Shown here one piece after another: positions 40,019 through 62,924 of a stretch of DNA of 64,000 bases (position 1 is its first letter; each line of letters begins with the position of its first letter). The notes under the pieces were generated by a model, which had not been told where the DNA came from, did not search any database, and saw only the letters and a program-made list of their open reading frames with translations. The stretch lies in contig JAAZBX010000007.1 of assembly GCA_012513575.1 (NCBI GenBank), positions 27,931 through 91,930 of the forward strand. Reading direction: 5' to 3'. The position numbers and the translations under genes were made by a program. Source of the stretch: Candidatus Dojkabacteria bacterium. GTDB lineage: Bacteria > Patescibacteriota > Dojkabacteria > SC72.

Positions 40019-40020
40019 AA

Positions 40021-41713: not shown

Positions 41714-41758
41714 GTTAAGTAATTCAAATAATATTAATTCAAACTTTCAAAAGAGCTT

Positions 41759-42157
41759 TTACAATTGTCCGGGTTCGCCGACATATTTGTTTAATTCTTT
41801 GACTAAGCCATCGTAATCTAAATCAGTTTTTACTAAATATGATGAAGCTCCTAGGCTAAACGATTCTCTAATAACAGACTCACTTGTCATATTAGTTAGG
41901 ATAATTACAGACATATCTCCATATTTCCCAGTATTTGTTTTAATAGCCCTGAGAACCTCCAAACCATCAACACCAGGCATCATCAAATCAAGAAGAAGAA
42001 TGTCAACGTTACCTAAGTTCTTTGACAATGTATCTAGGGCTTGATATCCATCAGAGGCTGTTAAAGCAAAGAAACCTGCCGTTTCAATTAATTCTTTGTA
42101 AGAATCCAACAAGTCTTTCTCATCCTCTACGACTAGAATTGTTTTCTTTTTATCCAT
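41759..42157 (-). CDS. Single-domain CheY/PilH-like response regulator
   Basis: Canonical receiver: VVEDE, the phospho-acceptor in LLLDLMMPGVDG, Thr in IILTN and Lys in LVKTD. Confidence 0.8.
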   Translation of the reverse strand: MDKKKTILVVEDEKDLLDSYKELIETAGFFALTASDGYQALDTLSKNLGNVDILLLDLMMPGVDGLEVLRAIKTNTGKYGDMSVIILTNMTSESVIRESFSLGASSYLVKTDLDYDGLVKELNKYVGEPGQL

Positions 42158-42198
42158 TTCACCTGTTTGTTGAATTTAGACAGTTTGGTTTATACATA

Positions 42199-42900
42199 TT
42201 ACCATATTATCGTTTCAGTTTTAATAATTGCTTGCCTCTGGAATTGTCTGTTTAGTAACTCACCGTTCCCAAAGTACCAATTTACAGCAGAAGAGAGCAT
42301 ATCTAATTGAATTACTTTGTTTTTCTCAACTGTAGGTTTAAGTTGTATAGTAAAATTCTCGATGTTTACAAATCTAGAGTTTAATACAACAAAATTTTCA
42401 TTTTCGGATATCAAACAATCACGATGATCATCGGGAGTATCCGCTAAATCAGGTTTTGAAGCTCTTAGAATATATCCATTTACATTCCCACTATTATCAA
42501 CATCAGTAGAAACACCTTTGTAGAAGGCTAAACAAATCCACCCAGTTGAGCCGTTTGGTTTGAAATGAATCTCATTACCTGTTTGGTTAGGAACTGTTAC
42601 TTCATCAAAAGAAGAAATCTCTGTTATATTTCCATTCTCAAAATTAAACGTTCTGGCATTACTTTGATAAAGACGAACATTACTCGGATCTGTTGTCCTG
42701 AGTGTTCTTCTTAACATCTCTAAAACATACTCTGATTCCGTTCTTACTCTTGCCTTGTTAGTAGAAGTTGTGGATACCCTTATCAATGTTGAGAGGACTA
42801 AAGCGGAAGTAAGCATTAAGAAACCAAGGATTACAGTCGTTATTAACATCTCCACCAAGCTAAACCCTTCGTATGTTTTTCTCTTTTTCATTCTCATCAT
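42199..42900 (-). CDS. Minor pilin / pseudopilin with a class III signal
   Basis: N-terminus KRKTYEGFSLVEMLITTVILGF has a prepilin cleavage and methylation motif (G/FSLVEM). Confidence 0.7.
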   Translation of the reverse strand: MMRMKKRKTYEGFSLVEMLITTVILGFLMLTSALVLSTLIRVSTTSTNKARVRTESEYVLEMLRRTLRTTDPSNVRLYQSNARTFNFENGNITEISSFDEVTVPNQTGNEIHFKPNGSTGWICLAFYKGVSTDVDNSGNVNGYILRASKPDLADTPDDHRDCLISENENFVVLNSRFVNIENFTIQLKPTVEKNKVIQLDMLSSAVNWYFGNGELLNRQFQRQAIIKTETIIW

Positions 42901-43496
42901 CTTAAAGGTATTACAGTTGAATATATATAGTGTTTGACATTTCTTCTTGCAGTATATGTACCTTCGCTTGCAAGATGACCAACCACAATCCCAACATTTA
43001 TTTGTTTATCCGTAGACGCAGTGTAGGGATAAAAACATGCATATCTAAAGAAACCACTTCCAACATTATTTGTCATTATTTCTGCATCTTCAAAATCTTC
43101 TCTATGAATATTAATCGTTTCTATTGTAAGAGAAGATATCGTCAGAATCTTAAAGTCATCATCTTTTTTAAATTCAAACACTCCTGAATTTGTAGTATCA
43201 GGAATAAAACATTTGATATTTGTTGGAAAACTAGGAGCTATTTTGTTAAAAAATGATATAGCATCAGAAGAAGTAGGATACTCGTAAAATTCCTGGACTA
43301 TATTCTCAGCCATATTTGCTCCTTCAACTGCATACTGTGTCATTTTATCTATTCTTTCATTTTCTACAGCATCACTCATTGTAGAAGCTGCAATTCTCAT
43401 AAGGACAACAGATGCGACACCAACTACCATTATGGCAATAAGGGATTCAATAAAGCCCATTCCTTCATATGAATTGTATTTAATTTTGTTCTTCAT
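42897..43496 (-). CDS. Minor pilin / pseudopilin
   Basis: N-terminus YEGMGFIESLIAIMVVGV is a prepilin-type motif with Glu at +5. Confidence 0.65.
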   Translation of the reverse strand: MKNKIKYNSYEGMGFIESLIAIMVVGVASVVLMRIAASTMSDAVENERIDKMTQYAVEGANMAENIVQEFYEYPTSSDAISFFNKIAPSFPTNIKCFIPDTTNSGVFEFKKDDDFKILTISSLTIETINIHREDFEDAEIMTNNVGSGFFRYACFYPYTASTDKQINVGIVVGHLASEGTYTARRNVKHYIYSTVIPLR

Positions 43497-44292
43497 TTCC
43501 TTTTACAATAATTCTTCCTGACAAGTGAGATATGACGATAGTTTTTCCACCTTTATTTCCTGGTCGTGAAATCTTAATCTCAAGGGGTAATGTTTCAGAC
43601 AAAGGCTTATGTGTATCATAATCGAAATTCAGCAACGCACCAGCAGAATCATAGAAGAGAGCTCTTCCTGTTACTGATTCAAAAAGAAGAAAAGCAGGAC
43701 GAGCATTGGGATTGGGTTCATCTGGATAACTGTCAGAAAAAACAGGCAAAATATTAACAGATAACTGCTGGTTTCCAGCTCCCATCGTACCAATACCCAT
43801 ATCTCCGAACAATGCATACCCCTTTAGGACATTGACTCCATCGCTTCCACAAGAACCCGTGTTGAAGGGTACTGTTGTAACTGGAATATTCCCATTATAT
43901 GAGCTGATGTCATTCTGTGGATCGAAATTGGGCACTGCTGATCTAGTTCTTATATCTCCATACTCAGAAAACCCTGAACACCATTTAAACGGATAATAGA
44001 CTCCGAAAGTTCCATTAACAGTATCCTCAATATTCCTTAAATCTATACCCAACCCATAAATCCATCCTTCATTTGAACTTTTTTCTAGCAACATAGCATC
44101 TCTCTGTACTTTCCTAATATTTTGTTCAAAACCATTTATAAACTCATTTAATCTAATAGTTGATTGAAAATTTTGATATGTTGAAAAAGAAAGTCCTGAT
44201 AAAAGAACAATTATGGACATAACAATCAACAACTCTATAAGTGTAAAACCAGAATATCTTGAAATCTTTTTTAACATATTAGGCAGCTTCAA
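43480..44292 (-). CDS. Minor pilin / pseudopilin
   Basis: N-terminus SRYSGFTLIELLIVMSIIVLLSG is a textbook GFTLIE prepilin motif. Confidence 0.75.
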   Translation of the reverse strand: MKLPNMLKKISRYSGFTLIELLIVMSIIVLLSGLSFSTYQNFQSTIRLNEFINGFEQNIRKVQRDAMLLEKSSNEGWIYGLGIDLRNIEDTVNGTFGVYYPFKWCSGFSEYGDIRTRSAVPNFDPQNDISSYNGNIPVTTVPFNTGSCGSDGVNVLKGYALFGDMGIGTMGAGNQQLSVNILPVFSDSYPDEPNPNARPAFLLFESVTGRALFYDSAGALLNFDYDTHKPLSETLPLEIKISRPGNKGGKTIVISHLSGRIIVKGNEEQN

Positions 44293-44345
44293 GTTACTAA
44301 TTCAATTTAGCATAAAACAATATACTATTCAATGTTTCTTACACT

Positions 44346-45101
44346 TTAAAGAGGTGGAATAATGAGCTGTAAGATTTTACTAAAAATCACATCTCCATAT
44401 ACAGCTCCAATTACAAAAGAAAGAGAGATGAAAGGAATCATTGGAATTTTTATCTTTTTGATATCTTCCTTTGTTATCAATCCATTAAAAATCGCATAGA
44501 GTAGAGCAGATACAATCGAGAGCCAAAAGGTCGTTAAAAATTGCTTTGGAGATATTACCAATCCAATTGAGAGTAATACTAGAATATCACCGAAGCCGAA
44601 AGATTTCTTTATTATCTTTGTTAATAGAAATATCCCTAATAATATTCCAATTGTAATAATTACAGACAGAGGAATTTGAATAAAGAGTATAAAAACAAGA
44701 ATTGAGAAAATTAATAAAGTATGAACTAAATTTCTCGGAATTTCTTTGTAGAGAAAATCATAGTATGAGAGAAGAAATAGGAATAGTAGAATTATCCAGA
44801 TATAAAAATGGGAACTATTTAAATAGAGAAGAAGGAAAGAACCTCCTAGGAAAGCTTCAGAGATAGGGTAGTAGGGATTTACCTTTGAGCGACAATTTTT
44901 ACATCTTCCTTTAATTAATAAATAACCAAAACATGGAATTAATTCATACCAAGTTAGTTTCTTTTTACATTTTTCACAATAAGAACTTTCTGTTAAGAGA
45001 GTTGATAGTTTAATATTTTTTTCAATTCTGTATAGTGTAGCGTTAATATAACTGGCCAAGGAAGCACCTAAGAAGAATATACATAAATATATAATTAGCA
45101 T
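44346..45101 (-). CDS. pilD: Prepilin peptidase / N-methyltransferase PilD (A24 family)
   Basis: Polytopic membrane protein with a CEKCKK...CKNCRS zinc-binding tetracysteine loop and conserved Asp residues. Confidence 0.8.
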   Translation of the reverse strand: MLIIYLCIFFLGASLASYINATLYRIEKNIKLSTLLTESSYCEKCKKKLTWYELIPCFGYLLIKGRCKNCRSKVNPYYPISEAFLGGSFLLLYLNSSHFYIWIILLFLFLLSYYDFLYKEIPRNLVHTLLIFSILVFILFIQIPLSVIITIGILLGIFLLTKIIKKSFGFGDILVLLSIGLVISPKQFLTTFWLSIVSALLYAIFNGLITKEDIKKIKIPMIPFISLSFVIGAVYGDVIFSKILQLIIPPL

Positions 45102-45133
45102 GTATCCATTATATACAGCTTTTTAAAAAAGAA

Positions 45134-45155
45134 GAACCCCTCGGAAGAGGGGTTC
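45134..45155 (-). terminator. Intrinsic terminator downstream of pilin gene 45171..45968
   Basis: Perfect hairpin GAACCCCTC-GGAA-GAGGGGTTC, followed on the minus strand by a T-rich run. Confidence 0.7.
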
Positions 45156-45170
45156 AAAGATATTTCTTAA

Positions 45171-45968
45171 TTACATACAGGCAGGACTATTCACATCAAG
45201 GCATTCTGTGTCTTTGTCAGAAACACAACTTGGAGAACATGGGTCATCAGGGCTTCCAGGTATTACTGGGGATGGAATATCTTTAACAATTGGTTCCAAA
45301 GTCTTATCTGTTCCATCATCCGTATCACAATATGAGGGTCTACCATCAATACAGTTTGTATTCTTTGTAGGATCACATGGAGCACAAGGGTCATAGGTTG
45401 GTTCCTCTTTTATTGGTGTCCACGTCCTTCCGTCCCAATTTGACCTTGTTTTAGCTTTCTTTATCAATTCATAACTTGCCGGGTCTTCCACAGGTAGATA
45501 CTTCTCCTTTGTTATTGTTCCAAAACCCTCTCCCATGGTTGGGTCTCCAAATCCATTTCCTACACAAATTATCCCTTTTTGTAATTCATCATCAATCCCT
45601 CCTAAAGTAACACAAATTAATACGGCTTGTTTAGATGTATTAGTAGAGTAGTAGTAGGTAGCTTCAGAACCACCATTAAAAAGACCTAAATCTAAATAGT
45701 TTTTTAGACTTCCTCCCTCTGCAGTCATCTGTTCAATACTAATTGGTGTCCCATCAGGTTGACTCCCATCTGGGAATACCCCATTATCAGTATAGAAGGA
45801 TTGAGCAGCCTGATAGAGTTGTGTGGCACCATTTTTATGTGCTATCTCATTTGATTTGTCTATTGAGAATCTTCCTGCAGCTACTCCTACGACAATTAGA
45901 ATTACCAAGATCCCCATTACAATTAGCATTTCTACTAACGTGAATGCTTTATATGATTTTTTCTTCAT
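45171..45968 (-). CDS. Type IV major pilin paralogue with a Cys-rich C-terminal extension
   Basis: N-terminus MKKKSYKAFTLVEMLIVMGILVIL is a class III signal with Ala at -1. The pilin fold has the CVTLGG...CVGNGF Cys pair. The last ~70 aa are Cys/Pro/Asp-rich with 10 Cys. Confidence 0.8.
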   Translation of the reverse strand: MKKKSYKAFTLVEMLIVMGILVILIVVGVAAGRFSIDKSNEIAHKNGATQLYQAAQSFYTDNGVFPDGSQPDGTPISIEQMTAEGGSLKNYLDLGLFNGGSEATYYYSTNTSKQAVLICVTLGGIDDELQKGIICVGNGFGDPTMGEGFGTITKEKYLPVEDPASYELIKKAKTRSNWDGRTWTPIKEEPTYDPCAPCDPTKNTNCIDGRPSYCDTDDGTDKTLEPIVKDIPSPVIPGSPDDPCSPSCVSDKDTECLDVNSPACM

Positions 45969-46029
45969 AATTGCTTTTTTAAATTTACTTATTATAAATT
46001 ACACAATATCGTTATACTTGTCAAAAGAA

Positions 46030-46051
46030 AAACCCCTCCGAAGAGGGGTTT
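46030..46051 (-). terminator. Intrinsic terminator downstream of pilin gene 46078..46653
   Basis: Hairpin AAACCCCTC-CGAA-GAGGGGTTT plus a T-rich run on the minus strand. Nearly identical to the 45134..45155 hairpin. Confidence 0.7.
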
Positions 46052-46077
46052 CAGATTACAAAACACTAAACTTTAAC

Positions 46078-46653
46078 TTATTGAACTACATCAACAGTTC
46101 CCCATCCATCTCCATTCCAGAAAGATGTATCAGCCGTCTCAACAATAGCAGTATATTCTGCATTCTCATCTGCTTCGTAAAATTCTTTGGTAATTGTAAA
46201 TGAGCCACTCCCATTTGTCAGAGTGTCAGGAGCAGTAAGGGCAAAACCGTTACCAACACAAGAGACACCTTTATTTGTCTCATCACCCGCTCCACCCAAG
46301 GTTACACAAACAACAACTGCCTGTCTGGTACTATTTACATAATAAGAATAGTCTGCCTCAGACCCACCCTTAAATGAACCCATATCTAAATATTTTCCCA
46401 AAGCACCCTCCACATTGTTAGGATTCGTGGTCATGTTCTCCAAAGTGTCATAACTTGGAAATCTTCCATAATCAGTAAAATGAGATTGTAATGCTTGATA
46501 TAACTGTGTAGCACCATTCTGGTGTGCAATTTGATTTGCTCTATCAATTGCAAACCTTCCTGCAGCTACTCCTACTACCATAAGGATAACTAAGATTCCC
46601 ATAACAATAAGCATCTCAATCAAAGTAAATGCTTTGTATGTTGCTCTCTTCAT
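46078..46653 (-). CDS. Type IV major pilin (PilA-like)
   Basis: N-terminus MKRATYKAFTLIEMLIVMGILVIL. Shares about 35 near-identical N-terminal residues and internal motifs with the 45171..45968 paralogue. Confidence 0.8.
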   Translation of the reverse strand: MKRATYKAFTLIEMLIVMGILVILMVVGVAAGRFAIDRANQIAHQNGATQLYQALQSHFTDYGRFPSYDTLENMTTNPNNVEGALGKYLDMGSFKGGSEADYSYYVNSTRQAVVVCVTLGGAGDETNKGVSCVGNGFALTAPDTLTNGSGSFTITKEFYEADENAEYTAIVETADTSFWNGDGWGTVDVVQ

Positions 46654-46720
46654 ATATTTTATATATTTAGGTTAATTTAACTAATAATAAGTTACACAAT
46701 GCTATTAACATTGTCAATAG

Positions 46721-47932
46721 CTATGTCATAACTTGAGACAAACCAAACATAGGCATATACACACCAAGTGCAATAAAACCAACTGCAACACCCATAATTA
46801 TTAACATTAAAGGCTCTAAAATTGTTGAAAGATTTGAAGTAGCAGTATCAACCTCTTCTTTATAATATTGAGATACCTTTTCTAAAACTGCATCAATCTC
46901 ACCTGTCTCCTCTCCTACAGAAATCATGCTACTAACAAGAAGTGGAAAATACTCACTCCTTGCAATCGGAAGAGCTAAAGGTCCCCCCTTTTCTACCTCT
47001 TCCTTTGATTCCATTACAACATCTTTAAATATGGAATTACTTAAAGATTGTCCTGTTAGCTCAAGAGCTTTGACAATTGACAAACCACTACCAAGCAACA
47101 AAGACAGAATTCTAGTAAATTGGGCAATCTGGGTTTTTGAAATAAGTTTACCAATAATTGGGAGTTTAATTAGAAGCTTGTCTATTGTCTTCTTTCCTTT
47201 CTCTGTGCTTTTGTAATATCTGAAACTAACATAAAATACAGAAATTATGACAATAACGGCCCACCAATAATCAAGTAAGAGATCACTTGCAGTCATAAGC
47301 ATTCTGGTAATAACTGGTAAATCAGCACCAAAATCATTGTAGATATCCGACATTGATGGAACGAGCACAAACATCATCATCAAAATAACACCCAAAATTA
47401 CTACAAGGATAATAACAGGATAAATCATTGCAGATTTAATTTTACGACTAAGAGATTCTTTTTCTTCTAATTCTGTAGCCAACTTACCAAGAATAACTTC
47501 CAAATTTCCACTTTCCTCTCCAGCTTCAATTAGGTTGAGTGTAATATTGTCAAATACATCTTCCTGCTCTCTAAATGAAACCGATAATGATTTCCCTGAT
47601 TGTACTGCAGTAGAGACATTCTGAAGAACTTTTTTAAACATTGGATTGCTTGATTGGTCAACCATTATTTCCAAAGCCCTATTAAGTGGCAACCCAGACG
47701 CAATCATTGTAGCCATCTGCCTCATAAAAACAACCTTTTCTTTCATTGGAACTCCACCAATGTTTATCTCTGAAAACCTACTGGGATCTAATATGCTTGC
47801 TTCTTTAATTGAAACAACAACTAAACCTTGATCATGGAGGATATCAGCAACAGCTCCCGGGTCTCTTGCCTCAATATCTCCCTTTACCTCTCTACCGTTT
47901 TTATCTCTTGCAGAGTATTTAAATTTCCCCAT
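46721..47932 (-). CDS. pilC: Type IV pilus platform protein PilC (GspF family)
   Basis: Two GspF repeats, three TM segments, 403 aa. Confidence 0.85.
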   Translation of the reverse strand: MGKFKYSARDKNGREVKGDIEARDPGAVADILHDQGLVVVSIKEASILDPSRFSEINIGGVPMKEKVVFMRQMATMIASGLPLNRALEIMVDQSSNPMFKKVLQNVSTAVQSGKSLSVSFREQEDVFDNITLNLIEAGEESGNLEVILGKLATELEEKESLSRKIKSAMIYPVIILVVILGVILMMMFVLVPSMSDIYNDFGADLPVITRMLMTASDLLLDYWWAVIVIISVFYVSFRYYKSTEKGKKTIDKLLIKLPIIGKLISKTQIAQFTRILSLLLGSGLSIVKALELTGQSLSNSIFKDVVMESKEEVEKGGPLALPIARSEYFPLLVSSMISVGEETGEIDAVLEKVSQYYKEEVDTATSNLSTILEPLMLIIMGVAVGFIALGVYMPMFGLSQVMT

Positions 47933-47935
47933 ATT

Positions 47936-49564
47936 TTAACCTTTTAATAATCTAACTACTTCATCAGGATGAACAGCATACTCCTGGGCTTTTTGGGCAG
48001 TTATCACACCCTCCCTTACCAAAGAAACCAATGATTTCTCAAGATATACCATTCCGATATCGGCACTTGTCCTAATGACATTATCTATCTGATGAGTTTT
48101 ACCTTCCCTAATAAGATTGGCGACAGCAGGTGTATTAAACAAAATCTCAGAAACTGCTCGTCTTCCTCCCTGGTCAAGAGGGATAAGTCTTTGAGCAACA
48201 ATAACCTGAAGAATATTTGATAGCTGCAACCTTACTTGGGCTTGCTGATTTTCTGGAAACACATCGATTACTCTATCAACTGTTTGAGCAGCATTGTTAG
48301 TATGCAATGTTGCAAATACTAAATGACCTGTCTCTGCCAAAGTAATCGCTGCAGCAATAGTTTCATAATCTCTCATCTCACCAACTAGGATAACATCTGG
48401 GTCTTGCCTCATTGCACTTCTTAGTGCAATTGCCCAAGAATTTGTATCATCATTCATTTCTCTCTGATCAATCAATGCTTTTTTGCCCTCAAAGACATAT
48501 TCAATAGGATCCTCTATTGTAATAATATGATCAAACCTGTTTCTATTAATATCTTCTAACATAGCAGCTAAAGTCGTACTTTTCCCGTGACCAGTTGGAC
48601 CAGTAACTAATACAAGACCCTGTTTTAACTTGGCAATTTGATGATATATTTGTGGCAAAAGCAATTCTTCAATGGTTTTAACTCTTGTTGGAATAAGTCT
48701 AAAAGCAGCTGCCAAATTTTTCATGGTATAGTAAGCATTTACCCTAAATCGTGCAGTTCTTGCACCTTCGAAGGAATATGCAAAGTCAATCTCTCTATTT
48801 ACTTCAAGAAGTTCTTTTTTATCATCAGGGATTACGGAGAGTATTAATTTTTCAGCTTCCTCAGGAGTCATGAGCTTTTCTCCAACATCAATTAATTCTC
48901 CATCAATTCTAATTATCGGAGGATATCCAACTGAAATATGCAAATCAGATGCATTTTTATTTACTACTTCGGTAAAAAGTTTTTCCATTGTAATTTCATT
49001 GCCTTCTAGAGAAATTTTTGAATTTTCGTTTTCAAGTGGCTCACTGTGTGGCATTATTGTACTAAGAGGTTTTGAAAGATTGTTTTCTTTCTCATTTCTT
49101 TCGAGAGCTTTTATTTTGTTAAGCTCAGGCATAATTTGAGAAAGAGACTCATTCCAATTACTTTTTGCAATGGGAGGAACTTGAAGATTTGGTAACTCTG
49201 TGGGCTTTTGTACATAGGTGGCCTCCTGTGTAGCAGAAGGTTGAGTCTGAGATTGCGCTGTCTGAGAAGGAGATGCCACTACAGATTCTTGTGCAGGTGG
49301 AGTATCTATAAGTGCACTAATGTCTTTTTTAAGTTCATTTAGTTTGTTTTCATCTATGTATGTCGAAGTAGAATCTTTTATCTCTGTCTTTGGCACTGAA
49401 GCGGTAGAAACAGGGGATGGTTGGGAGGGAGTAGAAGATGGTGCCACTGGATTGGTTTGAGGTTGTGGAACTTGTGTCGGAGTAACCTGAATAGGGGAGT
49501 TATTAAAATCTGGATACGCGAATTGCATTCCGTTTGGATTTTGATTTTGGGCAGTATTATCCAT
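47936..49564 (-). CDS. pilT: Twitching-motility retraction ATPase PilT with a ~190-aa low-complexity N-terminal extension
   Basis: PilT core with GPTGHGKSTTLAAM, Asp/His boxes and AIALRSAMRQDPDVILVGEMRD. The N-terminus is rich in P/Q/T/S. Confidence 0.85.
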   Translation of the reverse strand: MDNTAQNQNPNGMQFAYPDFNNSPIQVTPTQVPQPQTNPVAPSSTPSQPSPVSTASVPKTEIKDSTSTYIDENKLNELKKDISALIDTPPAQESVVASPSQTAQSQTQPSATQEATYVQKPTELPNLQVPPIAKSNWNESLSQIMPELNKIKALERNEKENNLSKPLSTIMPHSEPLENENSKISLEGNEITMEKLFTEVVNKNASDLHISVGYPPIIRIDGELIDVGEKLMTPEEAEKLILSVIPDDKKELLEVNREIDFAYSFEGARTARFRVNAYYTMKNLAAAFRLIPTRVKTIEELLLPQIYHQIAKLKQGLVLVTGPTGHGKSTTLAAMLEDINRNRFDHIITIEDPIEYVFEGKKALIDQREMNDDTNSWAIALRSAMRQDPDVILVGEMRDYETIAAAITLAETGHLVFATLHTNNAAQTVDRVIDVFPENQQAQVRLQLSNILQVIVAQRLIPLDQGGRRAVSEILFNTPAVANLIREGKTHQIDNVIRTSADIGMVYLEKSLVSLVREGVITAQKAQEYAVHPDEVVRLLKG

Positions 49565-49586
49565 ATATATTATTTATACCAAAAAA

Positions 49587-51419
49587 TTATTCTTTTGACA
49601 CCCTTAAGACTTCTTCTATAGTTGTAATCCCTTCAAGTGCCTTTAAATAGCCATCTTGAACCATTGTTATCATCCCTTGTTCAACACCCACATCTCTAAT
49701 ATCTGAGTCAGTAACAGTTTGCAGTATCATTCTACTGATTTTTTCAGAGATATCCAGAACTTCAAAAATACCAATTCTTCCAGAATATCCTGTTCCCCCA
49801 CAGTGATCGCACCCTTTTCCTTTGTAAAGATATATTTGTGGAGTTCCATCGGGACCGACATCTGGTGCCTTCATTACAATGGGCTCCTTTGCTCCTTCGG
49901 TATCCTTTAAGCTATTTTTTGATGCAACAACTCGGTTTAAATATGAAATCAAATCAAAATCTTTAATTCCTTTAATCGTTTCAGATATATTTCTCAAAAC
50001 TTCTGGAGATACAGGATATGCTTCAATACAGTGTTTACAGACTTTTCTAGGAAGCCTTTGAGCGGCAACAGCTCGAATAGTTGAGGCTAAAAGATATGGC
50101 TCAATCCCCATGTCCATTAACCTGGGAATTGCCGCAGCAGCACTGTTTGTGTGAAGGGTGGAAAGGACCAAATGTCCTGTCAGAGATGCCTGAACAGCCA
50201 ATTGGGCCGTTTCACCATCTCTAATCTCTCCAACCATAACAATATCAGGGTCCTGCCTTAAAACTGACCTTAAGCCGTTGGCAAAAGTCAAGCCGACATC
50301 GTCATTTATCTGTACCTGAGTAACACCTGGAATTCGGATTTCAACTGGATTTTCTAGGGAGATAATATTAACCTTAGGGTCATTTACCCTCATCAAAGAG
50401 CAAGCCAATGTTCTAGTTTTACCACTACCAGTTGGACCAGTAACAAGTACGATCCCATTTGTAACACTTAATGCATCAGTAAACACTTTAAATGCGTGTC
50501 CTCTTAAACCTGTATCCTCAAGAGCAATATTTTCCGTATCAGACTCAAGTAACCTCATGACAACCTTTTCCCCATAAATCATTGGCATAATAGAAACACG
50601 GATATCTACTTTGTTTTTCCCCATTTTAACCTGAAATCTACCATCCTGAGGGATTCTTTTTTCATCAATTTTTAAATTAGAAAGAATTTTAACTCTTGAC
50701 ACTACTGCCGGTCCAAGAGACTTTGGAAGAACAAGTCTTTCCGTCATTACACCATTGATTCTAAAACGTACTCTTACCTTTTCCTCTAAAGCCTCAATAT
50801 GGATATCAGACGTTTTACTCTTAACAGCATACTGCATAATAGAATTTACAATCCTTGCAATAGGTGCCGAAGCCAGATCTGCACTGTTTAATCCCCCCAT
50901 TGCACTTCCACTTTCATCTTCTGTTATTTCGGTAACTGGGACTCCAACATCTTCAAGCGCCTCTGTTACCTGCGAACTCATCAAATCTCCAACTCTTCTG
51001 TCTAGTATCAAACCAATTCCTTCTTTCGGAGAAATATACACTTCCATTCTTGTCCCTTGCGGATATCTACTCAGTAAAGCTTGGGTCGCCTGAATATCAA
51101 AAGGATCCTCCATTGCAATTTTGACCACGTTTCCAATTCTTTCAAAAGGAACAGCTCTATACTTCGCAAGATTATCTATGGGAATCTCAGCAATTATACT
51201 CTCAGGGACAGAAATTGTTGAAAGATCAACAAAGGGGATTCCAAATATAGCTGATTTAGCTTTAGTTAAATCCAAGTCCGATACGACATTAAGATCTTTT
51301 ATGATTGCTTCTTCAGTTTTATTTGTTCTACTTCTTTCTAAAAGAACTTTTCTTACAGTCTCATCATTAACAAGATTGTTCTCCTGAAGATATTTTAATA
51401 TCGATGTTTGGGCAGCCAT
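49587..51419 (-). CDS. pilB: Type IV pilus assembly ATPase PilB (GspE family)
   Basis: N-terminal GSPII_E_N domain, Walker A GPTGSGKTRTLA and a C-terminal tetracysteine motif (CKHC...CDHC). Confidence 0.88.
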   Translation of the reverse strand: MAAQTSILKYLQENNLVNDETVRKVLLERSRTNKTEEAIIKDLNVVSDLDLTKAKSAIFGIPFVDLSTISVPESIIAEIPIDNLAKYRAVPFERIGNVVKIAMEDPFDIQATQALLSRYPQGTRMEVYISPKEGIGLILDRRVGDLMSSQVTEALEDVGVPVTEITEDESGSAMGGLNSADLASAPIARIVNSIMQYAVKSKTSDIHIEALEEKVRVRFRINGVMTERLVLPKSLGPAVVSRVKILSNLKIDEKRIPQDGRFQVKMGKNKVDIRVSIMPMIYGEKVVMRLLESDTENIALEDTGLRGHAFKVFTDALSVTNGIVLVTGPTGSGKTRTLACSLMRVNDPKVNIISLENPVEIRIPGVTQVQINDDVGLTFANGLRSVLRQDPDIVMVGEIRDGETAQLAVQASLTGHLVLSTLHTNSAAAAIPRLMDMGIEPYLLASTIRAVAAQRLPRKVCKHCIEAYPVSPEVLRNISETIKGIKDFDLISYLNRVVASKNSLKDTEGAKEPIVMKAPDVGPDGTPQIYLYKGKGCDHCGGTGYSGRIGIFEVLDISEKISRMILQTVTDSDIRDVGVEQGMITMVQDGYLKALEGITTIEEVLRVSKE

Positions 51420-52309: not shown

Positions 52310-54220
52310 ATGGCCAATACTTCAGACTACGGTGCATCAAATATTCAAGTGCTCAAAGGGTTGGAAGCAGTCAGAAGAAGACCCGCAATGTATATTGGCT
52401 CAACTGATGTTCATGGACTTCATCATATTTTTACAGAAATTTTGGATAACTCCGTAGACGAAGCTATTGCTGGATACTGCAGCCAAATATGGGTAATTTT
52501 AAATCAAGACGGCTCTATTACAGTAAGAGATAATGCAAGAGGAATACCTGTAGATATACACCCAGAAACAAAAGTTTCTACTCTTGAGACAGTAATGACC
52601 AATCTTCATGCTGGAGGGAAATTTGAGCAAGGAGCATACAAAGTCTCAGGAGGATTACATGGAGTAGGTATGAAATGCACAAATGCCCTTTCGGAGTGGA
52701 TGGTAACAACCGTTAAGCGCGATGGAGGGATATTTGAGCAAAGATATGAGCGAGGAGTTCCAGTTGCTCCAGTAAAAAGGATTGGAGATTCAAACGAAAC
52801 AGGAACTCAACACACTTTCATGCCCGATGATAAGATATTCAGTACAACAACCTTTGATTTTGAGACAATTGTAAAAAAATGTAGACAACATGCATATTTA
52901 ACTGCAGGGTTAAGGATCTCGGTAATTGATGATACTCACGGAGAATATAAACAGTACGATTTGTATTTCGAAGATGGGATTAAGTCGTATGTTCAGTTCC
53001 TCAACTTAGAAATGAAAGCTATTGGTGAAGAACCATTCTACATGAACAAACAGGATGGAGAAATCGTAGTAGAGGTAGCCTTACAATACACAGACGATAT
53101 GGATGAAGATGTAAGATGCTACACAAACAACATCATTAATCCCGAGGGGGGTACCCACCTTGCAGGTTTTAGGACAGCAATCACAAGTGCAATTAACGCC
53201 TATGCGACAAAAGCAGAATTACTTAAAGGGTTGGGTGGGACATTGAGTGGTGACGACGTAAGGGAAGGCTTGACCGCCGTTATTTCAGTGAAGGTACCAA
53301 ATCCCCAATTTGAAGGTCAAACAAAAATAAAATTGAACAACCCAGAAGTTAAAAGTGTTGTTGCAAAAGTGGTCAGAGATGAATTATTAACATATTTTGA
53401 GGAGCACCCACAAGATGCAAAGAATGTAATTGGGAAAGCAGTTTTAGCAAACAAAGCAAAAGCGGCAGCTAAAGCAGCAAGAGATGCTGTTATTAGAAAG
53501 AATGCCCTAGAATCAACAACCCTTCCAGGGAAATTGGCTGATTGTACTAGCAAAGATCCGGCAGAGAGTGAGCTCTTTATTGTTGAGGGAAATTCGGCAG
53601 GAGGTTCAGCAAAGCAGGGTAGGGATAGACATACACAAGCAATTCTCCCTCTTAGAGGTAAAATTATTAATACTCATAAATACAGAGTCGATAGAGTACT
53701 TGAAAATAGTGAGTTTAATGATATTACTACAGCTTTAGGAGTAGGAATTGGAGACACACTTGATATGGGCAAGCTTAGGTATCATAAAATTATCATTATG
53801 AGTGATGCAGACGTTGATGGACTACACATTACAACTTTAGTTTTGACTTTACTTTTTAGATTTTTTAGACCTTTAATCGAAGGCGGGTATGTTTACGTTG
53901 CTCAACCCCCTTTACATAAAGTAGAGATTGGAAAGAAAAAATTCTACTTCCTCAATGACCAAGAGAAAGATGACTTCGTAACAAAAGCAAAATCGGCTGG
54001 AAAAGTTCCTGTTTCAAACAGGTTCAAAGGATTAGGAGAAATGAATCCAGAGCAATTGAGGGACACTACAATGGACCCGAAGAGTAGGGTACTTAAGAAA
54101 GTTCATATTGAAGATGCAGAAGAAGCAGAGAAGGTGTTTGAGATGTTGATGGGTAATGAAGTTCCACCAAGAAGAAGATTTATCCAGTCTCATGCACGAA
54201 AAGCAACTTTAGATATTTAA
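52310..54220 (+). CDS. gyrB: DNA gyrase subunit B
   Basis: GHKL ATPase (ILDNSVDEA), a Toprim domain (EGNSAGGSA) and the PLRGKIIN motif. Short-type GyrB (636 aa). Confidence 0.92.
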   Translation: MANTSDYGASNIQVLKGLEAVRRRPAMYIGSTDVHGLHHIFTEILDNSVDEAIAGYCSQIWVILNQDGSITVRDNARGIPVDIHPETKVSTLETVMTNLHAGGKFEQGAYKVSGGLHGVGMKCTNALSEWMVTTVKRDGGIFEQRYERGVPVAPVKRIGDSNETGTQHTFMPDDKIFSTTTFDFETIVKKCRQHAYLTAGLRISVIDDTHGEYKQYDLYFEDGIKSYVQFLNLEMKAIGEEPFYMNKQDGEIVVEVALQYTDDMDEDVRCYTNNIINPEGGTHLAGFRTAITSAINAYATKAELLKGLGGTLSGDDVREGLTAVISVKVPNPQFEGQTKIKLNNPEVKSVVAKVVRDELLTYFEEHPQDAKNVIGKAVLANKAKAAAKAARDAVIRKNALESTTLPGKLADCTSKDPAESELFIVEGNSAGGSAKQGRDRHTQAILPLRGKIINTHKYRVDRVLENSEFNDITTALGVGIGDTLDMGKLRYHKIIIMSDADVDGLHITTLVLTLLFRFFRPLIEGGYVYVAQPPLHKVEIGKKKFYFLNDQEKDDFVTKAKSAGKVPVSNRFKGLGEMNPEQLRDTTMDPKSRVLKKVHIEDAEEAEKVFEMLMGNEVPPRRRFIQSHARKATLDI

Positions 54221-57807: not shown

Positions 57808-58887
57808 GTGAAAAAGCTAGTAGTTTTTATTCTTATGTTAAGTATTGTATTAGGAGCATGTAATCCAAACCCAACAAATGTACCGACTATCGAACCAACA
57901 GCAACTCCAAGTCCAACGCCATTTGTATGGTCGTGCGAAAATGATCCCGTGAGGGGTGTATCGCTAGACTTAGAGGGAATGTACAAGACAAGTATAGAAA
58001 ATAGGTATGTTCCCGGGTGTACTCAGGGGTTTTTCATAGGTCTCTCAGGAGAGGCGTACCAAATCAATTTCCTTTTCAAGGACTATCAAGCTATTAGTCT
58101 TGACAATTCTTTTATCGCCAATTTAGAGACGACTGTTGAGTGGGAAATATATGCTTATGATTATTTTGTTCCACATCATTCTCAAAAAAAAGGTGATATT
58201 ATCTCCTTTGTAATGCCAGCTCCAGGGTATTTTCTTCTTGATCGTAACGGCTACCTTTATTTTGGAGTATTCGATGATCCTAATTTTGAAGATTATGTTA
58301 GGGTATTTGTGGATGGCGAGGAATGGTTTGCTTCTTCTACTACTGTTAGAATCTTGTTATCCCCAAATGGAGAATACATTGTACCGGAAGGAGCCACAGT
58401 AAGAATTGAGTCAATCAAGGATGCAGTTGATTATCAAGGTTTAGAGAATTACGGAACTCTCGGTTGGATTGAAGCAATTGTTTTTGAACGAACGTACCCC
58501 GGGGACACAGCAAAGACCAATCACCCAATTCTGAATGAAGAAACCCAAATTGATTTCGGACCGTATGGGATTTATAAACCCTCCTTTAACGAAGAAAGAA
58601 ACAAGTGGGGCCTTTCCCTTTCAGAAGAATCCATGGTAAAGCCTGGGATTTGGGAGGAAGGATATCTGAGAGACTTCATTTGGCACGGTGGTGCGTATGT
58701 ATTTTATATGCCCGCAGATGGGGTTGTATTTTGGAATAGAAGAACTTCTTCAATTTTGTTTGAAGGGGACGAAACAGATTCAGACACTGACAAAATAGAT
58801 GCACACCTCTATCGAGAGGGTGATTTAGTAGTTGTCTATTTTGAGAGGGCTTCTCTGGATGATTTTTACATTGAGTTTTTGAATTAA
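57808..58887 (+). CDS. Putative secreted lipoprotein
   Basis: Signal peptide with lipobox LGAC, then a Pro/Thr-rich linker (PTNVPTIEPTATPSPTP). GTG start preceded by GAGGAGG. GC is noticeably higher than in neighbouring genes. Confidence 0.6.
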   Translation: MKKLVVFILMLSIVLGACNPNPTNVPTIEPTATPSPTPFVWSCENDPVRGVSLDLEGMYKTSIENRYVPGCTQGFFIGLSGEAYQINFLFKDYQAISLDNSFIANLETTVEWEIYAYDYFVPHHSQKKGDIISFVMPAPGYFLLDRNGYLYFGVFDDPNFEDYVRVFVDGEEWFASSTTVRILLSPNGEYIVPEGATVRIESIKDAVDYQGLENYGTLGWIEAIVFERTYPGDTAKTNHPILNEETQIDFGPYGIYKPSFNEERNKWGLSLSEESMVKPGIWEEGYLRDFIWHGGAYVFYMPADGVVFWNRRTSSILFEGDETDSDTDKIDAHLYREGDLVVVYFERASLDDFYIEFLN

Positions 58888-59401: not shown

Positions 59402-60226
59402 ATGTCAGAATTCTGGGTAAAAATGATTACTTTTCTAATGAGTTTGACCCTATCTGTATCAACATATAGCCCTATGGGGAAATTAGTTAATCCTGATGAG
59501 AAAGGAATACTTTTCAGAGGAGAAGTTAAAGAGAGATTAATCAATGAGAATTCGGGAATTAAAGCTTTAACAACTCCTAATATCGTATCAAACAATACAA
59601 TCATAGGCTCAAAATGGTGGATATATCCTGAAGAAATTAAGCTAACGAAAAGAAGTGGAAATGATTTACTTGTTCTTGTGAATAAAGAGTATCGCTTACC
59701 AGAAACCTTTATCCCTATAGATCTTGTAAAAGCTAGCCAGTCGGGGATTAGAAGAGGAGAGAGCTATTACCTCAGGAGTATCTTAATTAATGACTTAAGA
59801 GACTTAGTAAACCAGGCTTCAAATGATGGCGTTGATTTAAGTATTCGCTCAGGATATAGATCTTATGCCGACCAACTTTATACTTACAATTTCTGGTTAA
59901 AAGCGAATGGAAATATTGAGGACGAAGCCGACAAGGTATCCGCTAGAGCAGGGCATAGCCAACACCAATTAGGCACTGCAATTGATTTTAGTAGCGCAGA
60001 AATCCAGGATGGATTAGGAGGCCAATTTTCAGGAACCCTTGCAGCCAAATGGTTAGAACAAAATGCATGGAAATACGGATTTGTTTTGGCTTTTCCAAAA
60101 GGATATGAAAATACAACTGGCTTTAGTTACGAAAGTTGGCATTACAGATATATTGGTATCGCTAATGCTTTAAATGTGATAAATAGTGGGAAAATATTGG
60201 AAGTATACTTAAGAGAGATTAATTAA
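59402..60226 (+). CDS. D-alanyl-D-alanine carboxypeptidase (peptidase M15B/VanY-like), secreted
   Basis: SGYRSY, AGHSQHQLGTAIDF and ESWHYRYIG Zn-binding motifs. N-terminal signal anchor. Confidence 0.8.
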   Translation: MSEFWVKMITFLMSLTLSVSTYSPMGKLVNPDEKGILFRGEVKERLINENSGIKALTTPNIVSNNTIIGSKWWIYPEEIKLTKRSGNDLLVLVNKEYRLPETFIPIDLVKASQSGIRRGESYYLRSILINDLRDLVNQASNDGVDLSIRSGYRSYADQLYTYNFWLKANGNIEDEADKVSARAGHSQHQLGTAIDFSSAEIQDGLGGQFSGTLAAKWLEQNAWKYGFVLAFPKGYENTTGFSYESWHYRYIGIANALNVINSGKILEVYLREIN

Positions 60227-60240
60227 CGTATAATAAAAAA

Positions 60241-60873
60241 ATGAAAAGTAATGGACCTCAAAAGATTCAAAATATTTATGTACTAATAGGATTTTTCTTT
60301 CTTTTTCTCTCGCTTATTGCTATTGCCATACCTATTGGGCCATATGTTTGGTATAGAATCAATCCCAATGAGACAGATAAAGATATTGAAAAAATCGTTA
60401 AGGAGATAACAACTGAAAAAATTGAACACAAAACTAAAACCACATCTCAAGTACCTCCACTTGACCCATCACTTCCGGAAACACCTTTTGTAATTATCCC
60501 CAAAATCAATGTTGAATCTCCGATCTCAACAAATAAAGATTTTAATACTGGCCTTGCAAAGGGCTCATGGATTGTGTCAGATTACGGAACTCCTGAGAAA
60601 CCAGAATTGCCAATTATTCTTGCTGCTCATAGATTCGGCTATGCAAATTGGAGTGTAGAGAAAAGAAATAGAATCTCTTTTTACAATCTCCCAGAGACCC
60701 AAGAGGGAGATGATGTTTTTATCTATTGGAATCAAAGAAGATATAACTACAAGATCTACAAGTCAAAAGAGAGTACCTATATTAGCGATTACAGTGCCGA
60801 CCTCATACTATATACATGCAAATTCTTTAATTCTCCGGTTCGTATCTTCCGGTATGCAGAGCTAGTTAAATAA
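60241..60873 (+). CDS. Sortase (second copy in window)
   Basis: N-terminal TM anchor, His in ILAAHRFGY, Cys in LILYTC and Arg in VRIFRY. Confidence 0.7.
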   Translation: MKSNGPQKIQNIYVLIGFFFLFLSLIAIAIPIGPYVWYRINPNETDKDIEKIVKEITTEKIEHKTKTTSQVPPLDPSLPETPFVIIPKINVESPISTNKDFNTGLAKGSWIVSDYGTPEKPELPIILAAHRFGYANWSVEKRNRISFYNLPETQEGDDVFIYWNQRRYNYKIYKSKESTYISDYSADLILYTCKFFNSPVRIFRYAELVK

Positions 60874-60967
60874 GCATTCCTCACACAGAGAGAAGCCCCA
60901 TAGTGTTGCCATTTCGGTTATTTCATGCTATAATTATCCTGCATTTAAATTAACTAGCCCTTTATAT

Positions 60968-61207
60968 ATGAGGAAGTTATTTTCAGCAACTTTAGCTGCT
61001 ATCTTGATTTCCGCTATAAATGTTTCTTCTGTCCTAGCTAGTGGGAACCCATACGGTCCATATAATCCATATGAACCTCATGAACCACTTCCAACTGGAT
61101 TTGGTGATACAAACACCTTCTATCTAGTAGCATTAGTCGCATTTACTGTCGGAATGATTATCTTAGCAATAGCTAAAGACCTTAAGGGCAAGCAGTCTGC
61201 TGCATAA
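60968..61207 (+). CDS. Tiny secreted protein with an LPTG-type C-terminal sorting signal
   Basis: Signal peptide ending VLA, then a ~17-residue mature segment SGNPYGPYNPYEPHEP, then LPTG, a 20-aa hydrophobic stretch and a basic tail KDLKGKQSAA. Encoded immediately downstream of the sortase. Confidence 0.55.
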   Translation: MRKLFSATLAAILISAINVSSVLASGNPYGPYNPYEPHEPLPTGFGDTNTFYLVALVAFTVGMIILAIAKDLKGKQSAA

Positions 61208-61276
61208 CAGTTGACTGCTCCCTTGGGGAGCAATAAATGCATTTTCTATAAATTTACTTATTTTTATCATTTTAAA

Positions 61277-62050
61277 ATGAAACTATCTTTGGTTATACCA
61301 ACATACAAAAAACAAAGAGATGTTTTGGATCAATTAGAAAGAGTATACGGCTACCTTTCAAGAAAGAATCCTGACTTTGAACTCATCTTCGTTATTGATG
61401 GGTATGTTGATAATACTAAGGATATTTTAGAAAAATATGTTAAGGAGAATAGATTAAAAAAAGTTTCCATCATAGGATATGAAGATAATATGGGTAAGGG
61501 ATATGCTGTTAGATATGGAATGAAAAGAGCTACAGGGGACGTTATTGGCTTTATTGATGCTGATACAGATATTCAAATTAGGACTTTAGGTTATGCTCTA
61601 AAATCTATCAAACATGATTCTGTCATGGCTGTAGTACCTTCTAAATTTCATAAGGATTCAAATGTTGAAATGAAACTTGGTAGAAAGATTCTTTCCTATG
61701 GATTGATGTATACTAATAGGTTTCTTTTAAAGCTACCAAAGAATGTTGACGATGTTGGGTGTGGTCTCAAATTATTTAGAAAAGAATTAATCGAAAGAAT
61801 ACTTCCTTCGTTAAGAGTAAATAATTTTGCGATAGATTCTGAGATATTAAATCTAATTGGTAGAGTAGGTTACTCAGTTTCCGTTATTCCTTTCTACTTA
61901 AACAAGAACAGAAGTGAAAGTACATCTGCGAATATTGGGAAGATTTTAGGCATGGTGAAAGATATATTTGTCCTTTCATTAAGTAATAGATATATTTTCA
62001 AGAACTCATTCTCAAAGCCATCTTACATTGACAATTCTAGCAACCTATAG
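61277..62050 (+). CDS. Family 2 glycosyltransferase (polyprenol-phosphate sugar transferase-like)
   Basis: LSLVIPTYKK...IFVIDGYVDNT...IDADTD motifs (DXD). The start was moved from the track ORF (61211) to the ATG at 61277. Confidence 0.8.
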   Translation: MKLSLVIPTYKKQRDVLDQLERVYGYLSRKNPDFELIFVIDGYVDNTKDILEKYVKENRLKKVSIIGYEDNMGKGYAVRYGMKRATGDVIGFIDADTDIQIRTLGYALKSIKHDSVMAVVPSKFHKDSNVEMKLGRKILSYGLMYTNRFLLKLPKNVDDVGCGLKLFRKELIERILPSLRVNNFAIDSEILNLIGRVGYSVSVIPFYLNKNRSESTSANIGKILGMVKDIFVLSLSNRYIFKNSFSKPSYIDNSSNL

Positions 62051-62305: not shown

Positions 62306-62363
62306 CCATTTGGATGCAAAAGCAGAGAGCTTTTTCGAAAATTATCGGCTTAAGGAGGCCAAA

Positions 62364-62924
62364 ATGAAAGACAATAAGAAAGATGAAAAGAAACCTAACT
62401 GGAAAGAAAAGATCAAAGAGGTCAATTGGTGGATGGTTTTGGCCATCATTGCGGTCATAGCTTTATTGCTATCGTTCGCCTATCGGGCGCAACAAGCGAA
62501 GCTAGCCGCTCCAGCAGCATCATCACAGTCCTCAGGACAAACAGGCGACCAGACAGGCATCGTTGCTGCGGCTCCCAATTGTCAAGAAATTGGCATAACT
62601 TTCGGCAAAAGCGGTTCATTCCGTTCCGTATGGGACTCGAATATGAAAACATGCGTTCTGGGAATGTGGGAAGAAGCGAGGATTTCGCCCGGAATGTCCT
62701 TGGCGGACTTGAAAATTCAAGGGGACGATTACTCGTTCCTCATGCCGTTCAAGGGATCAATTAACCATTCCGCGGACACCATTTTCGTGAACAATACAAA
62801 ATGTACCCCAGGGAACCCTGTTTCCTGTGATGGGAAAACTTCGTTCGAGAAGAACACCCCAGTACATATTGTTTCCGAACCGGGAAATGATTCCTCAGGC
62901 GTAATGCTTATTCAAAATCCATAA
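62364..62924 (+). CDS. GC-rich secreted or membrane-anchored Cys-containing protein of unknown function
   Basis: An AAGGAGG RBS 7 nt upstream of the ATG at 62364; the track ORF start at 62310 lies inside the leader. N-terminal signal anchor (WWMVLAIIAVIALLLSFA). Roughly 48% GC against a much lower-GC background. About 5 Cys in the exported part. Confidence 0.6.
   Translation: MKDNKKDEKKPNWKEKIKEVNWWMVLAIIAVIALLLSFAYRAQQAKLAAPAASSQSSGQTGDQTGIVAAAPNCQEIGITFGKSGSFRSVWDSNMKTCVLGMWEEARISPGMSLADLKIQGDDYSFLMPFKGSINHSADTIFVNNTKCTPGNPVSCDGKTSFEKNTPVHIVSEPGNDSSGVMLIQNP

Follow-up and report, generated by a model that had tools for sequence, protein, structure and literature searches.

Sortases anchor folded surface proteins or build pili, and SrtA of Staphylococcus aureus and Streptococcus pyogenes serves many dispersed substrates. 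A sortase with an adjacent cognate substrate is an arrangement that is already known: SrtB-IsdC (NPQTN) and the class GN 'marine' sortase with its single target also place one sortase beside one non-LPXTG substrate, and both IsdC and the marine-sortase substrates carry folded domains (NEAT and VIT/vWA, respectively). Here we describe a candidate pair from a Candidatus Dojkabacteria bacterium, located in a stretch of 64,000 nucleotides of contig JAAZBX010000007.1 (hereafter the window, with a G+C content of 34%), where a divergent sortase is followed by a gene for a 79-residue protein, which we call the mini protein. The new elements are a cargo-less putative substrate, its H-x-P-x-[PD]-T-G signal and a lineage-wide one-to-one pairing, and our search of the literature on sortases together with sorting signals of the candidate phyla radiation (CPR), Dojkabacteria or Patescibacteria returned no description of this pair. 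Sortase genes are present in over half of CPR genomes, including almost every Microgenomates genome, according to Méheust et al. (PMC6744442), who named no substrates. If the pairing holds true, these bacteria would have their first concrete example of a sortase with its substrate and recognition motif (H-x-P-x-[P/D]-T-G).

Compared with SrtA, the window enzyme shares the membrane-anchored Cys transpeptidase family, the His/Cys/Arg triad and the closest predicted fold, and the mini protein shares with SrtA substrates a predicted signal peptide, a Thr-Gly motif, a hydrophobic helix and a basic tail. The two systems differ in sequence (about 20% identity between the enzymes), in the motif (H-x-P-[ILVE]-[PD]-T-G versus LPXTG), in the lack of a folded passenger on the substrate, and in that the window sortase, unlike SrtA, forms a near-obligate gene pair with its putative substrate. 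Unlike the folded substrates of SrtB and the marine sortases, the mini protein exposes only 8-23 residues. The EVPTG and QVPTG(V) pilin signals of Streptococcus pyogenes (the TIGR03065 class) consist of a hydrophobic residue followed by Pro-Thr-Gly, with Pro at P2, and are resembled by the P-L-P-T-G of the window and the P-V-P-T-G of its relatives. The mini family, however, gives no hidden Markov model (HMM) match to these pilins, carries Asp at P2 in about 40% of cases, and has neither an Ig-fold domain nor a conserved Lys.

A divergent sortase and its small neighbour

The features that carry the argument are as follows (positions in the window).
60241-60873, + strand: divergent sortase, 210 residues; Pfam PF04203, 39.6 bits against a cut-off of 26.6
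60968-61207, + strand: mini gene, putative substrate, 79 residues; open reading frame (ORF) read and translated as MRKLFSATLAAILISAINVSSVLA, SGNPYGPYNPYEPHEPLPT, then GFGDTNT-FYLVALVAFTVGMIILAIA-KDLKGKQSAA
60968-61039, + strand: predicted signal peptide of the mini protein, residues 1-24, MRKLFSATLAAILISAINVSSVLA
61040-61096, + strand: predicted exposed peptide, residues 25-43, SGNPYGPYNPYEPHEPLPT
61079-61099, + strand: motif H38-E-P-L-P-T43-G44
61118-61174, + strand: predicted transmembrane helix, residues 51-69, FYLVALVAFTVGMIILAIA
61175-61204, + strand: basic tail KDLKGKQSAA, residues 70-79, with the stop codon at 61205-61207
29584-30270, + strand: first sortase of the window; Pfam 87.8 bits, TIGR01076 72 bits (above its cut-off)

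The 210-residue enzyme has an N-terminal membrane anchor at about residues 5-40 and the catalytic residues His130 (AAHRFGY), Cys193 (LILYTCK) and Arg201 (P.RIFRYA), which are invariant in 78 homologues and also present in the first sortase. The anchor helix, too, shows unusual conservation: Y13, G17, P31, P34, Y35 and Y38 do not vary across the 78 sequences. The AlphaFold2 (AF2) model, with a mean predicted local distance difference test score (pLDDT) of 89.2, consists of a long N-terminal helix (5-40) and a beta-barrel. Because a sequence profile was nearly blind against PDB sequences (E 0.014), fold comparison was needed to place the enzyme: a Foldseek search against PDB gave 133 matches at E<=1e-3, of which the best 50 are all sortases, headed by the SrtA structure 7s56 (E 2.9e-9) and streptococcal class A sortases at about 20% identity. 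The NCBIfam models for classes A-F stayed below their cut-offs (class C 21.2 bits against 160, SrtD 20.7 against 140), as did the general sortase model TIGR01076 (18.3 bits against 39.35), and the NCBIfam marine_sortase model gave no match to the window sortase. Since the predicted fold and the triad are those of a sortase, yet no class A-F or TIGR01076 model is reached, the enzyme belongs to a genuine but unclassified sortase lineage and is a putative transpeptidase.

The earlier note on this DNA, made from the letters alone, was right to call this enzyme the second sortase. The two window sortases are barely alignable (24% identity over 51 residues). The first one lies head-to-head with a Big_6/Ca-tandemer-like protein of 312 residues (28544-29482, - strand), which has an N-terminal transmembrane segment and ends in DSDLPVAAGELQLALSILKDGQ-helix-YKKNRLQ; this end may represent another non-canonical sorting signal, unlike that of the mini protein (LPVAAG?).

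The 79-residue ORF that the earlier note placed right after the second sortase is indeed there, beginning 94 bp past the stop codon of the sortase ORF. Its predicted signal peptide, with an MRK n-region, a hydrophobic core and a VLA|SG site, was judged from sequence and conservation, A24 being kept in 100% and G26 in 82% of the mini family. Between the predicted cut at A24|S25 and the putative one at T43|G44 lie 19 residues, or 17 (NPYGPYNPYEPHEPLPT) if the signal peptide is cut after G26. The cargo is thus as tiny as the note had claimed, whereas its 17-residue length applies only to the second cut (the segment quoted there, without LPT, has 16 residues). The tripartite signal proposed in the note stands in its three parts, motif, hydrophobic helix and basic tail, with the helix measuring 19 residues. 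In detail, the C-terminal anatomy matches the sorting-signal layout, with GFGDTNT, the 19-residue helix and KDLKGKQSAA (tail within about 10 residues of the motif), and the basic-tail lysines are conserved in the family (K70 85%, K73 75%, K75 74%). In a six-frame scan of the 64 kb, a P..T[G]-type motif together with a hydrophobic helix and a basic C-terminal tail occurs in no ORF other than the mini gene.

A selected gene that stays beside its sortase

A word-indexed search of 5.8 billion proteins returned 28 mini homologues of 73-81 residues, the named ones from Dojkabacteria, beside one mis-started call of 108 residues and one fragment. A profile search of 1.84 billion cluster representatives added depth, with 55 clusters at E<1e-3, all but one of them 43-97 residues long and nearly all 71-97. 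Homologues of both sortase and mini protein come from Candidatus Dojkabacteria (WS6) of the CPR; in related species the mini protein has 71-86 residues, and its homologues are annotated as 'hypothetical'. Scans of both the Pfam and NCBIfam libraries found no model for the family. Two candidates were set aside: the 108-residue call (P0001) is a mis-called start, rejected because that start sits upstream of the conserved promoter, and the lone large profile match (P0196) is a eukaryote-like lectin-repeat protein matched through low complexity only.

The ratio of non-synonymous to synonymous substitution rates (dN/dS, Nei-Gojobori, six relatives) is 0.11-0.36 overall and varies by region, from 0.83 in the signal peptide to 0.12 in the exposed peptide and 0.15 in the transmembrane segment plus tail, so that within one protein the non-synonymous rate of the C-terminal helix is about one fifth of that of the signal-peptide helix. 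The earlier note had made its reading depend on the small ORF being conserved as coding sequence in relatives, and because of these overall ratios and the regional constraint it is so conserved. The mini ORF is a conserved protein family under purifying selection, far beyond chance.

To place the pair in its genomic context, we ran a sortase-seeded scan with one genome per species, which yielded 218 genomes; the best 80, of Dojkabacteria/WS6 type, were inspected over about 12 kb per sortase. Using an HMM of the mini family, the mini gene was found downstream on the same strand in 72 of the 80 species genomes, which answers the note's suggestion to look for such pairs in relatives. The gap to the sortase is 63-204 bp in 44 genomes, 0.35-2.4 kb in 27 (usually with VanY, a carboxypeptidase gene, in between) and 4.8 kb in one. 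The eight misses comprise five contigs that end within 1 kb, one N-masked locus where a mini-like tail is visible past the gap, and two loci (L085, L088) with a longer homologue. Look-ups in the opposite direction, from six mini proteins at 28-73% identity, four of them only 28-36% identical to the window protein, found a sortase of this clade at most 3.5 kb upstream on the same strand in all six. Among the 80 loci, gyrA-VanY-SRT-mini and gyrA-SRT-VanY-mini are the prevailing gene orders, and the linkage survives swaps and insertions. Within the window and about 1 Mb of related loci, no larger protein carries the same C-terminal signal; it occurs in mini proteins only. The association between the mini gene and this clade of sortases is tight and specific. 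In one locus (L036, 402-1865), what looked like a fusion of sortase and VanY in a single ORF is an artefact of a masked N-run.

The two loci with a longer homologue opened a view on a sister clade. When the L088 and L085 sortases served as queries against metagenomes, they gave 530 matches, of which 80 loci were inspected over about 10 kb each. The sister partner ends in (I/V)CTPVYG[MS]A[ND]xCxEHxxVDTG, followed by the helix FYNLAxLSYxGGLAAF and a KAK tail, and comes in two lengths: a mini form of 75-83 residues, whose signal peptide ends in ..HADG, and a form of 150-200 residues with a Pro/Thr-rich linker, still without a folded domain. Profile-profile comparison (hhalign) of the sister and Dojkabacteria families gave 96% probability (E 5e-9) and aligned the H, the D-T-G and the helix glycine. 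Of the sister loci, 28 have 3 kb or more of sequence on either side; 19 of these carry the partner downstream in the same orientation, while none has gyrA nearby and VanY is almost wholly missing there. As the partner is kept though gyrA and VanY are gone, the sortase-partner linkage is more than inherited gene order, and the VanY linkage is specific to Dojkabacteria.

Some further observations concern these partners. They carry a two-cysteine loop before the motif (L085, 7733-8176; L088, 6659-7198; L089-L168), and the sister-clade contigs, which reach 1.09 Mb, resemble other Patescibacteria. The mini forms of the two clades share an A-[D/S]-G sequence at the predicted signal-peptidase site (window 61034-61045, residues 23-26), among them those of L158, L160, L162 and L165 in the sister clade, although the remainder of their exposed peptides differs; this conservation exceeds what signal peptidase needs.

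The mini gene also comes with expression signals of its own.
60906-60934, + strand: promoter-like element TTGCCA-17 nt-TG-TATAAT, matching at 11/12 positions, with an extended -10
60935-60967, + strand: 5' untranslated region (5'UTR) of the mini gene (..TGCATTTAAATTAACTAGCCCTTTATAT), nearly identical across many species
61216-61232, + strand: GC hairpin UGCUCCC-UUG-GGGAGCA, 9 nt past the stop codon; minimum free energy -15.1 kcal/mol, z = -2.1

A promoter-like pair matching at 9/12 positions or better is present in all 73 loci, with a perfect TATAAT in 44 of 45 among the loci listed. In 49 of the 52 loci scoring at least 10/12, the -10 element ends 30-37 nt before the ATG, behind sortase or VanY alike. 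A CCCATAGT box upstream of the promoter is nearly identical across many species. The 5'UTR shows no obvious Shine-Dalgarno sequence, no Rfam match and no significant fold (z = 0). A hairpin of the form GCTCC(C)...GG(G)AGC recurs past the mini stop codon in related loci and is probably a terminator or stabiliser; a simple terminator scan missed it because no T-run follows directly. The mini gene therefore looks, from its predicted promoter and hairpin, like a self-contained expression unit, and a conserved strong promoter and hairpin of its own would fit a stoichiometric, abundant substrate beside a catalytic enzyme. As a separate observation, the non-coding stretch 60890-60967, likewise in L009-L088, is conserved though the proteins have diverged, with the CCCATAGT box, the -35-like element, TATAAT and TGCATTTAAATTAACTAGCCCTTTA.

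Motif, proposed reaction and competing readings

Motif statistics were collected over 72 species, with positions counted from Thr (0). H(-5) is found in 70/72, P(-3) in 72/72, T(0) in 71/72 and G(+1) in 64/72; position -2 is I in 25, V in 17, E in 16 and L in 13, position -1 is P in 38, D in 28, Q in 3 and E in 3, position +2 is F, L or I, and +4 is D in 59 of the 72. The window 'LPTG' thus reads as the local spelling of a predicted H-x-P-[ILVE]-[PD]-T-G-[FLI]-x-D signal, or, in the LPXTG register, of P-[ILVE]-[PD]-T-G, with P-L-P-T-G in the window and NPYEPHEPLPTGFGDT as the type of peptide across the T-G bond. The earlier view of LPTG as an LPXTG one residue shorter does not survive this comparison, as its L varies among I, V, L and E, and its second P is D in 28/72. 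Position -1 also appeared in a covariation between several sortase columns and the motif (e.g., enzyme position 153 is K/R/H in 31/37 acidic-motif versus 5/38 Pro-motif species), which we did not use because the P and D states follow clades and phylogeny confounds the comparison.

The exposed peptide has 8-23 residues across the family, or 10-23 if cut after the invariant Ala, with DGYGHTPVDT as the shortest form under that cut, and is composed of 24% Pro, 14% Tyr and 12% Gly. The window peptide contains no Lys, and any K at all occurs in 24/72 species, at the variable -4 position. Without a conserved lysine, the polymerising subunit that the earlier note had offered as one role finds no footing, and the family likewise shows neither an Ig-like (CnaA/CnaB) domain nor a conserved pilin-motif lysine among the pilin features sought. 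A sub-threshold match of 5/56 members to the TrbC/VirB2 pilin family (PF04956, best E 0.01) was rejected as due to the two hydrophobic segments, and weak matches to ExtJ and PtrA among family members as hydrophobic-segment noise. On the transmembrane helix one face is conserved, with F51 in 86%, A55 in 82%, F/Y at 59, G62 in 100% and L66 in 62%.

We consider it likely, by a rough estimate, that the sortase and the mini protein are a cognate enzyme and its substrate or partner. For the whole chain, i.e., a dedicated sortase-substrate pair in which a short Pro/Tyr/His peptide without folded cargo is attached to the wall, the balance tips only slightly in favour. The reality of the mini gene, its selection, its linkage to the sortase, the motif anatomy and the fold and triad of the enzyme are established here; cleavage, acceptor and purpose we infer as follows. 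The 79-residue precursor would be exported via its signal peptide, which would be removed at about A24|S25, and the processed product would be held in the membrane by its C-terminal helix and basic tail. Its membrane-proximal H-x-P-x-[P/D]-T|G would then be presented to the neighbouring membrane-anchored sortase, probably with the help of the conserved face of the substrate helix, which may contact the equally conserved anchor helix of the sortase. Cys193 would cut after Thr43, forming a thioester, and the Pro/Tyr/His-rich peptide of 17-19 residues (8-23 in relatives) would be moved to an amine of lipid II or peptidoglycan, both of which the class A penicillin-binding protein encoded in the window suggests are available as acceptors. 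The wall would so be decorated with a short peptide and not with a protein.

An analogy for such a wall-bound small polypeptide is Braun's lipoprotein (Lpp) of Gram-negatives, which is very small, very abundant and covalently bound to peptidoglycan. Lpp is lipidated, tethers the outer membrane and is attached via its C-terminal Lys by L,D-transpeptidases, whereas the mini peptide lacks a lipobox, and its attachment would run through Thr with a sortase as the enzyme. If this reading is true, a lineage-wide sortase would put its chemistry to a different use, on a partner without any domain; the outcome could be a wall that bears a short ribosomal peptide, or a peptide made by a sortase. The small size of both motif and enzyme allows direct work with synthetic peptides, and a new specificity could serve protein ligation.

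Several points weigh against wall attachment of a dedicated substrate. The motif is other than LPXTG, a pentapeptide found neither in the window protein nor in the family across the 72 species. The window protein matches no PF00746, TIGR01167 or other curated sorting-signal model, and 3/56 family members give sub-threshold matches only (best E 0.049 for PF00746 and 0.13 for TIGR01167). Substrates were sought in some 12 kb of DNA surrounding each Dojkabacteria sortase, or some 10 kb in the sister clade, so the enzyme may have others elsewhere in the genome. A peptide of 8-23 residues would sit buried within the wall. Finally, conservation extends beyond the pentapeptide, to Y/H upstream, to F/L(+2) and D(+4) downstream and to the helix face F51/A55/F/Y59/G62, whereas ordinary sortase substrates lack such extended conservation. 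Such a long stretch could be the mark of a protein that binds its partner stably, or of a role for the C-terminal fragment; together with the conserved helix face it keeps three alternatives alive.

The first, to which we give a modest chance, is that the mini protein stays uncleaved in the membrane and partners or regulates the sortase in trans, gating or positioning it as a pseudo-substrate or through its anchor helix. Small membrane proteins modulate other housekeeping sortases, and several lines of evidence lean this way: the dN/dS of 0.15 for C-terminal helix and tail versus 0.83 for the signal-peptide helix, the single conserved helix face (F51, A55, F/Y59, G62 at 100%, L66), the unusual conservation of the sortase anchor helix itself, a conserved stretch around T-G that spans about 15 residues and so exceeds a sortase pentapeptide, and the lack of folded cargo in every member, the 150-200-residue forms included. 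A near-invariant Thr-Gly at the right distance from a helix with a basic tail is, however, what a scissile signal predicts, and a strong promoter of its own suggests that the mini protein outnumbers the enzyme.

That same promoter resembles the one of a peptide precursor gene, which brings up a second alternative, namely that the sortase does process the mini protein but the product is released, as a linear, cyclic or head-to-tail oligomeric peptide, and acts as a secreted signal or host-interaction factor of an episymbiont; either water or the N-terminal amine of the peptide itself would resolve the acyl-enzyme. The whole exposed part has only 8-23 residues and is the most conserved part of the protein. 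Retention of A-[DS]-G in the mini forms of both clades suggests that the new N-terminus matters, and with no conserved Lys for isopeptide polymerisation, polymerisation or cyclisation would use that N-terminus. Yet the predicted N-terminus is usually D or S and not Gly if the cut falls after A24, the 150-200-residue sister forms have long Pro/Thr linkers typical of wall-spanning stalks, and in the loci inspected no exporter, receptor or modifying enzyme is conserved nearby. We put the chance of a released product as small.

A slimmer chance still is that the functional product is the C-terminal fragment GFGDTNT-FYLVALVAFTVGMIILAIA-KDLKGKQSAA, either as a signalling 'C-peptide' sensed within the membrane or as a membrane-anchored N-terminal glycine acceptor for another sortase. 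Conservation of F/L/I at +2, of D at +4 (59/72), of the helix face and of the tail would be explained, a second sortase exists in the genome, and there is a precedent in Streptococcus gordonii, where cleaved LPXTG C-peptides are reported to signal to a histidine kinase (summarised in PMC11502775). There, the membrane fragment that sortase cleavage leaves behind has its own function, and in the mini protein the C-terminal helix is under sequence-specific selection; the mini locus, however, has no linked histidine kinase, nor is a sensor kinase conserved in the neighbourhood of the loci inspected. Moreover, the N-terminal peptide, which this model does not need, is more conserved than the C-terminal fragment (column entropy 1.12 versus 1.87-1.98 bits). 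Seen from the enzyme, it is unlikely that the sortase is a peptide-maturation enzyme with the sole task of processing a ribosomal mini-precursor, whose conserved peptide is released, cyclised or oligomerised head-to-tail as a secreted factor of an ultra-small episymbiont, or that the N-terminal Gly of the membrane fragment is an acceptor for the second sortase.

Finally, that the adjacency is inherited synteny, with the mini protein an unrelated bitopic membrane protein and the true sortase substrates elsewhere, is very improbable: Dojkabacteria keep even the functionally unrelated gyrA beside the cluster, so gene order is conservative there, but the sister clade lost gyrA and VanY and still has the partner downstream on the same strand, rearrangements and insertions never separated the pair, and the partner has the Thr-Gly, helix and basic-tail layout expected of a sortase substrate.

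Neighbouring genes

The other wall-related genes of the window are the following.
59402-60226, + strand: VanY/LdcB-type peptidoglycan carboxypeptidase (M15B); Pfam VanY 123 bits, NCBIfam LdcB/VanXY-like
61277-62050, + strand: family-2 glycosyltransferase (GT2), 257 residues; Pfam Glycos_transf_2 83 bits
17172-20171, - strand: class A penicillin-binding protein, 999 residues, with transglycosylase and transpeptidase

In most Dojkabacteria loci VanY accompanies the pair, either ahead of the sortase or separating it from the mini gene. The start of the GT2 gene is probably the conserved ATG 61277 (MKLSLVIPTYKK...) and not TTG 61211, the Pfam match beginning at residue 26 of the TTG ORF; with this start, a 69-bp intergenic region holds the hairpin. 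In 43/73 Dojkabacteria loci the gene immediately after the mini gene is a GT2 orthologue, and the sister clade has a different GT2 0.7-2.3 kb downstream in 18/39 loci. In the class A penicillin-binding protein, about 360 residues beyond the transpeptidase domain match no Pfam family.

The cluster is flanked by two secreted or membrane proteins without a family match: one of 359 residues with a lipoprotein-like LGAC signal (57808-58887), and one of 204 residues with an N-terminal transmembrane segment (62310-62924), one or two relatives of which, at times in tandem, are found downstream of the mini gene in 13/80 Dojkabacteria loci. Further away, a type IV pilus cluster (39293-51419, - strand) encodes a PilM-like protein, a prepilin with an N-methylation motif, a prepilin peptidase, a PilC-like platform protein and two secretion ATPases, and a response-regulator receiver gene (41759-42157) is embedded in it. 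The gyrB of a related Dojkabacteria genome (L003/L004, 1-1251) carries an intein (Pfam Intein_splicing), and the window gyrB (52310-54220) has a normal length of 636 residues.

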